Assembly (NCBI GenBank): GCA_031272505.1
Contig: JAISTQ010000005.1
Location: 31,572 to 95,571 of the forward strand
DNA: 64,000 nt
DNA from: Propionibacteriaceae bacterium
GTDB taxonomy: Bacteria > Actinomycetota > Actinomycetes > Propionibacteriales > Propionibacteriaceae
Direction of reading: 5' to 3'
Both the position numbers and the translations under genes were made by a program. The notes under the pieces were generated by a model. It saw only the letters and a list, made by a program, of their open reading frames with translations. It searched no databases and was not told where the DNA came from. This document shows, one piece after another, positions 53,221-53,350 of this stretch. Position 1 is the stretch's first letter. The number at the start of each line of letters is the position of its first letter.

Positions 53221-53224
53221 AGCG

Positions 53225-53230
53225 CTATAA
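53225..53230 (+). promoter_or_regulatory. Consensus -10 hexamer TATAAT, 7 nt upstream of the leader-peptide GTG
   Basis: Exact TATAAT. Spacing is consistent with a leaderless transcript beginning at the GTG. Confidence 0.35.
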
Positions 53231-53237
53231 TAGCCCT

Positions 53238-53279
53238 CGTGTTTGCGCGACTGCTGCTTGGTTGCCGCAGCGAGGCCTA
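53238..53279 (+). CDS. Candidate leuA leader peptide MFARLLLGCRSEA (Leu-Leu-Leu)
   Basis: 13-codon ORF with three consecutive Leu codons (CTG CTG CTT). Its 3' end overlaps the 5' arm of a hairpin. Confidence 0.4.
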
Positions 53280-53299
53280 ATCCCCAGGCTTCCTCGCTG
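53266..53299 (+). promoter_or_regulatory. Attenuator-like hairpin GCAGCGAGG-(16 nt)-CCTCGCTGC upstream of leuA
   Basis: Perfect 9-bp inverted repeat; weak U-tract (GAGTTTG) after it. Confidence 0.4.
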
Positions 53300-53350
53300 C
53301 GGAGTTTGCCCGCGCCTGACACCCCAACTCACAGATAGGAAGCCAAAGAC

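Follow-up and report, generated by a model that had tools for sequence, protein, structure and literature searches.

The 130-nt gap between the divergent genes rpiB (minus strand) and leuA (plus strand) in a Propionibacteriaceae bacterium genome contains a leader that is near certainly a member of the LEU element, a published element of actinobacterial leuA genes. The stretch of DNA analysed (the window) is 64,000 nt long and corresponds to positions 31,572 to 95,571 of contig JAISTQ010000005.1; the gap and its leader were delimited from the sequence between positions 52400 and 54000 of the window and from the list of its open reading frames (ORFs). The leader comprises a micro-ORF with three consecutive Leu codons, a perfect hairpin (P1) that begins just downstream of them, and a pseudoknot that involves the loop of P1. 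The best-supported model of its action, with a probability of about 0.6, is that a ribosome stalled at the Leu codons would control access to the leuA Shine-Dalgarno (SD) sequence, so that leuA translation would be on when leucine is short; the support comes from the comparison of related leaders and from thermodynamic modelling.

The LEU element was described by Seliverstov, Putzer, Gelfand and Lyubetsky (2005, BMC Microbiol 5:54; PMC1262725), who found it 5′ of leuA 'in most Actinobacteria' as a micro-ORF with a Leu run, together with a pseudoknot, an alternative hairpin, and pairing of the Leu run with the SD sequence into a base stem. They reported no such element in Propionibacterium acnes, left its mechanism open, and leaned toward a protein-binding site. 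In Streptomyces lividans, start-site mapping shows the leuA leader peptide to be leaderless, and no typical Rho-independent terminator accompanies it (PMC8079986); Leu-run leader peptides also precede leuA in Corynebacterium glutamicum (cg4015; PMC4046766, PMC3890552) and Corynebacterium diphtheriae (PMC5784534). An upstream ORF of Mycobacterium abscessus leuA is ribosome-protected (PMC4974804). The leader in the window is thus not novel as a discovery, as the element has been known since 2005 and reports on Streptomyces and Corynebacterium transcriptomes have described it as leaderless and terminator-less. Its remaining value is mechanistic: a 5-nt spacer, a stop codon in the P1 loop, a covarying pseudoknot, and a P1 stem about equal in energy to an SD-masking helix, which together make a model that can be tested by mutation. 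If the element does act as a purely translational attenuator, the question of its mechanism, left open in 2005, would have a definite answer.

Anatomy and conservation of the leader

The micro-ORF, P1 and the downstream gene have the following positions in the window.

53226..53231, plus strand: predicted -10 hexamer TATAAT for the leader transcript, read from the sequence; a TANNNT hexamer recurs in relatives
53239..53280, plus strand: leader micro-ORF, leuL-like, MFARLLLGCRSEA, with a GTG start and a TAA stop at 53278-80; from the sequence, the ORF list and homologous micro-ORFs
53251..53259, plus strand: putative sensor codons CTG CTG CTT (Leu-Leu-Leu), of which the third is the rare codon CTT
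53260..53264, plus strand: 5-nt spacer GGTTG from the Leu run to P1 (5 nt in 62/62 leaders); together with the Leu run, segment 1
53265..53275, plus strand: P1 5′ arm CCGCAGCGAGG, which is segment 2; within the micro-ORF and Shine-Dalgarno-like (GAGG)
53292..53302, plus strand: P1 3′ arm CCTCGCTGCGG, starting with the anti-SD-like CCUC
53351..55078, plus strand: leuA, 2-isopropylmalate synthase, 575 aa (Pfam HMGL-like, IPMS_D2 and LeuA_dimer); the gene proposed as regulated

The hexamer TATAAT is followed by a 7-nt spacer (AGCCCTC) and then by the GTG at 53239-41. Transcription is predicted from this spacing to start at 53238 or 53239, which would make the micro-ORF leaderless or give it a 1-nt leader. 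The micro-ORF reads GTG TTT GCG CGA CTG CTG CTT GGT TGC CGC AGC GAG GCC TAA. P1 is a perfect 11-bp stem that starts exactly 5 nt past the last Leu codon, the TAA stop codon of the micro-ORF is located in its loop, and the 3′ end of the whole element lies 6 nt upstream of the leuA ATG. The initial annotation, made from the sequence alone, had already described much of this arrangement. Its 13-codon GTG ORF with CTG-CTG-CTT is present at 53239-53280, with the Leu codons at 53251-59. The TATAAT lies 7 nt before the GTG as described, at coordinates 1 nt higher than those given (53226-31, not 53225-30, with the GTG at 53239, not 53238). The perfect hairpin overlapped by the 3′ end of the micro-ORF is also there, with 11 bp (53265-75/53292-302) instead of 9 bp, and the Leu triplet is indeed upstream of it, the last Leu codon ending 5 nt before the stem.

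A promoter scan detected no sigma-70 -35/-10 pair and no -35 match upstream of the leader. A terminator scan detected no terminator in the leader (53239-53350), and the sole terminator-like site falls within leuA; downstream of P1 there is only UUU and no U run (GGAGUUUGCC). These results and the literature agree with the earlier statement that a strong U-tract is lacking and that the output step is uncertain. A search of 52700-53900 against Rfam 15 with cmscan, at E values up to 10, revealed no leader, T-box or riboswitch and returned only chance matches to miRNA and snoRNA families. The LEU element is absent from Rfam 15, and the alignment and model of 60 leaders described below could seed such a family and improve actinobacterial annotation.

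The leuA product is 60-92% identical to actinobacterial LeuA proteins, and 80 loci retrieved by a LeuA search formed the comparison set. The closest LeuA proteins are from Propionibacteriaceae metagenome-assembled genomes (92% and 83% identity); the other loci belong to Propionicimonas, Enemella, Nocardioides, Marmoricola, Mumia, Jatrophihabitans, Bowdeniella, Micrococcales, Actinotalea, Kineosporiaceae, Mobiluncus, Cellulomonadaceae, Schaalia and Actinomyces. A Leu-run micro-ORF is found about 100 nt 5′ of leuA in at least 62 of the 80 loci (Propionibacteriales, Micrococcales, Actinomycetales and others), and follows the pattern M..(R)xLLL(R/G/S)(C/G/R)R(S/G)E(V/A). The conservation in relatives for which the initial annotation had proposed to look is therefore present; the annotation had missed that the whole element was already published in 2005 under the name LEU element.

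A simple covariance model (R1), for which 60 leaders other than that of the window were used, proved highly specific: run on the 64-kb window, it gave a single significant match, at 53248-53325 (67.8 bits, E about 2e-12), and the next match on the plus strand scored 15.2 bits. In metagenomes, a first pattern scan gave no match and a broader pattern recovered 34 loci.

Spacing within the leader is conserved. The distance between the Leu run and P1 is the same in all 62 leaders, which supports the ribosome-sensing geometry proposed earlier, and the stop codon always lies within the P1 loop (62/62), 2-20 nt past the 5′ arm. A TANNNT hexamer is found 6-10 nt 5′ of the micro-ORF start in 53 of the 62 leaders, and this supports the earlier prediction, likewise drawn from sequence, that the micro-ORF is leaderless. 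Members of the Propionicimonas clade have CANCAT-like boxes at the position of the hexamer. In 56 of 62 leaders CTT occupies the third Leu position, although it makes up only 5.6% of the Leu codons in the long ORFs of the window; a fixed CTT at this position fits either a rare-codon sensor or a pairing constraint.

Five further loci carry a variant element, with Leu-Ile-Leu, Leu-Arg-Leu or a truncated flank. In two Propionicimonas loci (L006 and L013, at about 1378-1386) the Leu run is broken to CTC ATC CTT, and in Nocardioides L022 to CTG CGT CTT (Leu-Arg-Leu), with the remaining element intact in these cases. Loci L063 and L066-L078 (Schaalia, Actinomyces and Pauljensenia) are without a LEU element and share another conserved upstream region, possibly a leader of a distinct type. 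Only in L077 and L078 does this region hold a longer ORF with one LLL (…QYAQLLLACPASSIDYEA).

Predicted RNA pairing within the leader and with the leuA start region

Beyond P1, the following strands take part in pairing.

53285..53289, plus strand: pseudoknot 5′ strand CAGGC, from the 3′ half of the loop of P1, with an RNAduplex energy of -9.7 kcal/mol (z = -3.2 relative to shuffles)
53314..53318, plus strand: pseudoknot 3′ strand GCCTG, 11 nt past P1 (10-17 nt past P1 across the family)
53287..53306, plus strand: segment 3, the anti-SD strand, with GGCUUCCU (53287-94), GCU (53297-99) and GAGUU (53302-06) as potential partners of the leuA SD region
53326..53344, plus strand: segment 4, the leuA SD region, with AGGAAGCC (53337-44), AACUC (53326-30) and CAG (53332-34)
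53353..53364, plus strand: segment 5, made up of the ATG's G and codons 2-5 of leuA (GACCAAGC.GCA), with complementarity to positions 53252-63 of the Leu run and spacer

The 115-nt leader folds more stably than shuffled versions of itself (z = -2.2). In P1, 5 of 10 pairs carry compensatory changes when an unbiased MAFFT alignment is used, and 6 of 11 do so in the segment alignment, in which 98.5% of the cells are paired. These changes alter the peptide, turning RSE into RGE, RVE, RNE, RAE, RVG or RGG, and the constraint on the sequence 3′ of the LLL is therefore on the RNA and not on the peptide.

The pseudoknot helix occupies the same position throughout but differs in type between lineages: CAGGC:GCCTG, GCCGG:CCGGC, GUCGG:CCGGC, GGTCGGC:GCCGACC, GACTGGC:GCTGGTC and AAGGCCA:TGGCCTT. 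Full-length MAFFT alignment mis-registers the pseudoknot strands, and duplex-anchored segments were used instead. The core pairs vary on both sides of the helix, in a count that leans toward pairing as the segments were anchored on the best duplex; on sequence evidence, the switch of helix type between lineages at a fixed position is a stronger argument than the formal count of pairs. Duplex swaps between species were uninformative about covariation of the pseudoknot, of the Leu run with the SD, and of the P1 3′ arm with the SD, the helix sequences being common to many lineages. An alternative fold, in which GCCU (53275-78) pairs with AGGC (53286-89), lengthens P1 and excludes the pseudoknot.

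The 3′ side of P1 can also pair with the ribosome-binding site of leuA. The core of the leuA SD, AGGAAG, lies 8 nt upstream of the ATG, and GGCUUCCU is complementary to AGGAAGCC around it. With two more short helices, the pairing of segment 3 with segment 4 reaches -24.7 kcal/mol (RNAduplex), near-equal to the -26.6 kcal/mol of P1. This helix excludes both P1 and the pseudoknot, and it appears in the fold obtained with a ribosome placed at the stop codon. The pairing CUUCCU(C):(G)AGGAAG is retained in the closest metagenomic relatives (L095, L098, L101, L103 and L107).

The Leu run has a partner near the leuA start as well. Segment 1 pairs with segment 5 at -17.0 kcal/mol (RNAduplex) as part of the minimum-free-energy fold, and this helix is the window's version of the base stem of the LEU element. 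In many lineages the Leu run pairs instead with the SD or with the stretch just 5′ of it, and the partner sequences covary, as in Mobiluncus (CUGCUGUUG:CAACAGCAG), in L049-51 (CUGCUUCU:AGGAGCAG) and in Marmoricola (CUUCUUCGCUG:CAGCGAAGAG). The initial annotation had read the hairpin without the pseudoknot, the anti-SD character of its 3′ side, or the pairing of the Leu run with the leuA start region. Of these, the anti-SD side of P1 would provide a concrete translational mechanism. The earlier interpretation is supported in outline, and its description of a leaderless transcript with no U-tract repeats published knowledge.

One further helix was left out of the model. In the window, GCGCG (53245-49) together with the GTG region can pair strongly with CGCGC...GACAC, the CGCGC being at 53311-15 (-15.7 kcal/mol, z = -2.8), but the family gives this pairing no support (mean z = -0.55). 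This helix, which adjoins the 3′ strand of the pseudoknot, would hide the leaderless start codon. GCGC(G) is frequent in relatives, but in differing reading frames. The Marmoricola leaders L024, L025, L048 and L061 have an additional small hairpin (CAGAG...CTCTGG) in the P1 loop, between the stop codon and the pseudoknot strand.

Proposed ribosome stalling and alternative explanations

From the anatomy of the sequence, its family membership, its conservation and spacing, the covariation of P1 and the pseudoknot, and the computed energetics, all of which are observed, we infer a transcription start, translation of the micro-ORF, stalling and a translational output that would work as follows. 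Transcription starting 7-8 nt past TATAAT would produce an mRNA that begins at the GTG (53239) or 1 nt before it, and a ribosome would load on its 5′ end. Five segments would then interact: (1) the Leu codons and spacer, (2) the P1 5′ arm, an SD look-alike, (3) the P1 3′ arm and its flanks, an anti-SD look-alike, (4) the leuA SD, and (5) the first leuA codons. When leucine is plentiful, the ribosome would reach the stop codon in the P1 loop, unwind segment 2 and cover the pseudoknot strand, leaving segment 3 to pair with segment 4 and hide the SD. After release of the ribosome, segment 1 would pair with segment 5, P1 would re-form and the start region would be blocked, with leuA poorly translated. 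When Leu-tRNA is scarce, the ribosome would wait at the Leu codons with its front edge just short of P1, a position set by the 5-nt spacer. P1 and the pseudoknot would stay folded and hold segment 3, segment 1 would be buried in the ribosome, and segments 4 and 5 would both be free for leuA to be translated. The untranslated, C-rich leader may also invite Rho, adding a transcriptional component.

With the 5-nt spacer, some 8 nt separate the third Leu codon's first base from the first pair of P1. A distance of about 8 nt from the first base of the A-site codon is roughly the edge of the mRNA entry channel of the ribosome. With P1 near that edge, a ribosome awaiting Leu-tRNA would leave P1 folded, and one that has moved at least two codons further would melt it.

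The cost of opening the leuA start region (positions -15 to +13) was computed with a thermodynamic model in which the ribosome covers positions -12 to +12 around the P-site. In the window the cost is 8.0 kcal/mol for the free RNA, 4.9, 4.0 and 5.6 kcal/mol with the A-site at the first, second and third Leu codon, and 14.6 kcal/mol with the ribosome at the stop codon. Among the 62 leaders, which are related to one another and were modelled without the pseudoknot, 42 open at a cost that is over 1 kcal/mol lower in the stalled than in the stop state. Compared with the free RNA, the stalled state is cheaper in 32 of the 62 leaders and dearer in 13.

Several points weigh against this model. The stalled state is dearer than the stop state in 9 of the 62 leaders, and the calculation itself ignores the pseudoknot and folding kinetics. 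The leaders are phylogenetically related, and the family statistics overstate their independence. The complementarity between the SD and the anti-SD strand cannot give covariation, the SD itself being constrained. The Leu run and the SD itself form a weak duplex in the window (-7.8 kcal/mol, z = +0.7). The gap of 9-10 nt between the -10 hexamer and the ATG in many relatives means that some transcripts may have a 2-3-nt leader. Finally, mutations of the Leu codons in the Streptomyces coelicolor leuA leader left regulation unaltered, according to the citation of Craster et al. (1999) in PMC1262725; it was because of this result, as cited there, that Seliverstov et al. favoured a protein-binding site.

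The S. coelicolor result, in the form in which PMC1262725 cites it, would suit a trans-acting factor that binds the pseudoknot and masks or unmasks the leuA ribosome-binding site, the Leu codons being kept as a strand of the base stem. Such a factor could be a regulatory protein, e.g., the helicase-like ML1624 orthologue proposed in 2005, or uncharged tRNA. Since the Leu run and spacer are complementary to, and covary with, the leuA initiation region in many lineages (Mobiluncus, L049-51), there is an RNA-level reason for conservation of the Leu run. A binding site of this kind would nevertheless leave unexplained why the reading frame, the start after a -10 box and the stop in the P1 loop are kept in 62 leaders while the peptide 3′ of the LLL varies freely, and why at least three Leu codons end in a rare one. 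A Leu-run-to-P1 distance that is exact to the nucleotide is more readily expected of a ribosome footprint than of a protein site, the Rfam search gave no match to a T-box or other known RNA family, and the LEU element has no conserved unpaired nucleotides according to Seliverstov et al. (PMC1262725). Regulation by a trans-acting factor is judged quite improbable on this balance. An effect of Rho is somewhat easier to reconcile with the leader. Here the micro-ORF would govern the loading of Rho on the untranslated, C-rich RNA between the stop codon and leuA, and premature termination would occur instead of, or besides, SD masking. Between P1 and the SD the RNA is rich in C and poor in G, with 39% C and 19% G in the window and family averages of 38% and 27%, the terminator scan of the leader was empty of intrinsic terminators, and Rho was proposed by Seliverstov et al. 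(PMC1262725) for terminator-less cys leaders of the same organisms. Rho is also compatible with SD masking, which would expose the untranslated 5′ end of leuA to it. However, a spacer of ~35-40 nt is short for a Rho loading site, and Rho alone leaves the pseudoknot, the anti-SD complementarity and the pairing of the Leu run with the start region unexplained; Rho-dependent attenuation is considered unlikely.

Classical transcription attenuation would require P1 to act as an intrinsic terminator without a U-tract. Such terminators have been proposed for high-GC actinobacteria, and P1 is a strong, GC-rich stem of 11 bp right after a micro-ORF with regulatory codons. The RNA past the stem has only UUU, though, and relatives have no U there (GGAGUGAGUCGCG). 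No conserved antiterminator competes with P1 from the 5′ side, and the logic would be inverted, as a stalled ribosome leaves P1 intact and starvation would favour termination. P1 as an intrinsic terminator was rejected for its absent U-tract and inverted regulatory logic, and this explanation is very improbable. A -1 frameshift at the Leu run was also considered, because a pseudoknot 5 nt downstream of the run resembles the geometry of a frameshift signal; it was rejected, as CUG CUG CUU and CUG CUU CUU are not slippery heptamers of the form X XXY YYZ.

A candidate rpiB promoter, neighbouring genes and comparison with known systems

The stalling model concerns leuA, and the box that would drive its leader may also serve the divergent gene.

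52759..53220, minus strand: rpiB, ribose-5-phosphate isomerase B (Pfam LacAB_rpiB, E = 2e-52, the profile beginning at residue 3)
53227..53232, minus strand: candidate -10 hexamer TATTAT for leaderless rpiB, the minus-strand reading of the box, 6 nt upstream of the rpiB ATG, whose A is 53220

The rpiB start ATG and the micro-ORF GTG are 18 nt apart. The initial annotation had placed the rpiB promoter in this region, for which TATTAT is a candidate, and had missed that the box is symmetric and could be shared. The -11A and -7T positions of TATAAT and TATTAT reciprocally coincide, and the canonical predicted starts, 53238 (plus strand) and 53220 (minus strand, the A of the rpiB ATG), are 18 bp apart. 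A single symmetric TATAAT could, on this reading of the sequence, drive leaderless rpiB and the leuA leader in opposite directions. In relative L002 a separate box (TAGGGT) lies 7 nt before the rpiB ATG and 36 nt from that of the leader, so the shared box appears specific to the lineage of the window; a divergent rpiB was absent in 10 of the 10 metagenomic relatives examined. The shared TATAAT is a compact example of one -10 box possibly driving two leaderless genes, and if it does so, RNA polymerase would choose between rpiB and the leuA leader at each binding event. The joint proposal, that the element is a purely translational attenuator in which the arms of P1 imitate an SD and an anti-SD, so that the position of the ribosome decides whether the anti-SD arm stays with its decoy (leuA on) or is freed to bind the real SD (leuA off), and that the same symmetric TATAAT also fires leaderless rpiB, is more tentative than the stalling model by itself.

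Downstream, the leuA stop codon is followed after 9 nt by a long-form argG (55088-56509; argininosuccinate synthase, 473 aa), with no room for a terminator, and a leucine-controlled leader may consequently govern an arginine gene too. argG is also found 3′ of leuA in the Propionicimonas-like loci L003, L008, L011 and L012, at 130-800 nt; no argG match was found in the L002 flank examined. On the other side, just downstream of rpiB, the ORF at 52225-52731 encodes a strongly acidic protein in which Pro-Glu (PEPEPE...) is repeated about 35 times and which has a hydrophobic helix at its C terminus, and its DNA is an array of GAGCC(G/C) hexamers.

Among known promoters, the box between rpiB and the leader resembles symmetric bidirectional promoters, whose commonest layout, in the summary of Warman et al. 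(2021) given in PMC10268837, has shared -11A/-7T positions and starts 18 bp apart. Both properties are predicted from sequence here, and the difference is that both transcripts, those of rpiB and of the leuA leader peptide, would be leaderless.

The leader as a whole is closest to the LEU element (PMC1262725). Both have a Leu-run micro-ORF directly 5′ of leuA and no terminator, a hairpin loop that pairs downstream to form a pseudoknot (a likeness at the level of the published description), an alternative hairpin fold, and a predicted base stem that joins the Leu run to the leuA initiation region. In the window, however, the predicted partner of the Leu run is the start codon with codons 2-5 (53353-64) and not the SD, and the SD is complementary to the 3′ side of P1 (53287-94). 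The element is present in the window and in many Propionicimonas-like genomes, in contrast to P. acnes, for which none was reported. The leader peptides of S. lividans (LeuL1, MRFGLLLLSCRGEGL; PMC8079986), C. glutamicum (cg4015) and C. diphtheriae (MNRANLLLLRRGGSQA; PMC5784534) share the motif LLL-x-(C/R)-R-(G/S)-(E/G) with that of the window, and in all of them the codons following the LLL form the P1 5′ arm. The window differs in its GTG start and three Leu codons, compared with four to five Leu in the other leaders. Experimental start sites exist for S. lividans and C. glutamicum, none was obtained for C. diphtheriae, and in the window the start is predicted from the -10 spacing only.

Outside the Actinobacteria, the enterobacterial leu leader (Rfam Leu_leader, RF00512) has the same short peptide with consecutive, partly rare Leu codons, and there charged tRNA-Leu is sensed through the position of the ribosome, which selects among folds. 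It and the classical attenuators differ from the window in having a U-tract terminator hairpin; the leader in the window has no Rfam match, its mRNA is predicted to be leaderless, and its proposed output is access to the ribosome-binding site. In that respect the leader is like the translational attenuation of ermC and cat, where a ribosome stalled in a short upstream ORF remodels a hairpin further on and thereby makes the SD and start of the regulated gene accessible. The proposed stall signal here is a shortage of Leu-tRNA and not an antibiotic together with a nascent peptide, a pseudoknot is involved, and the stalled ribosome would preserve the hairpin instead of melting it.

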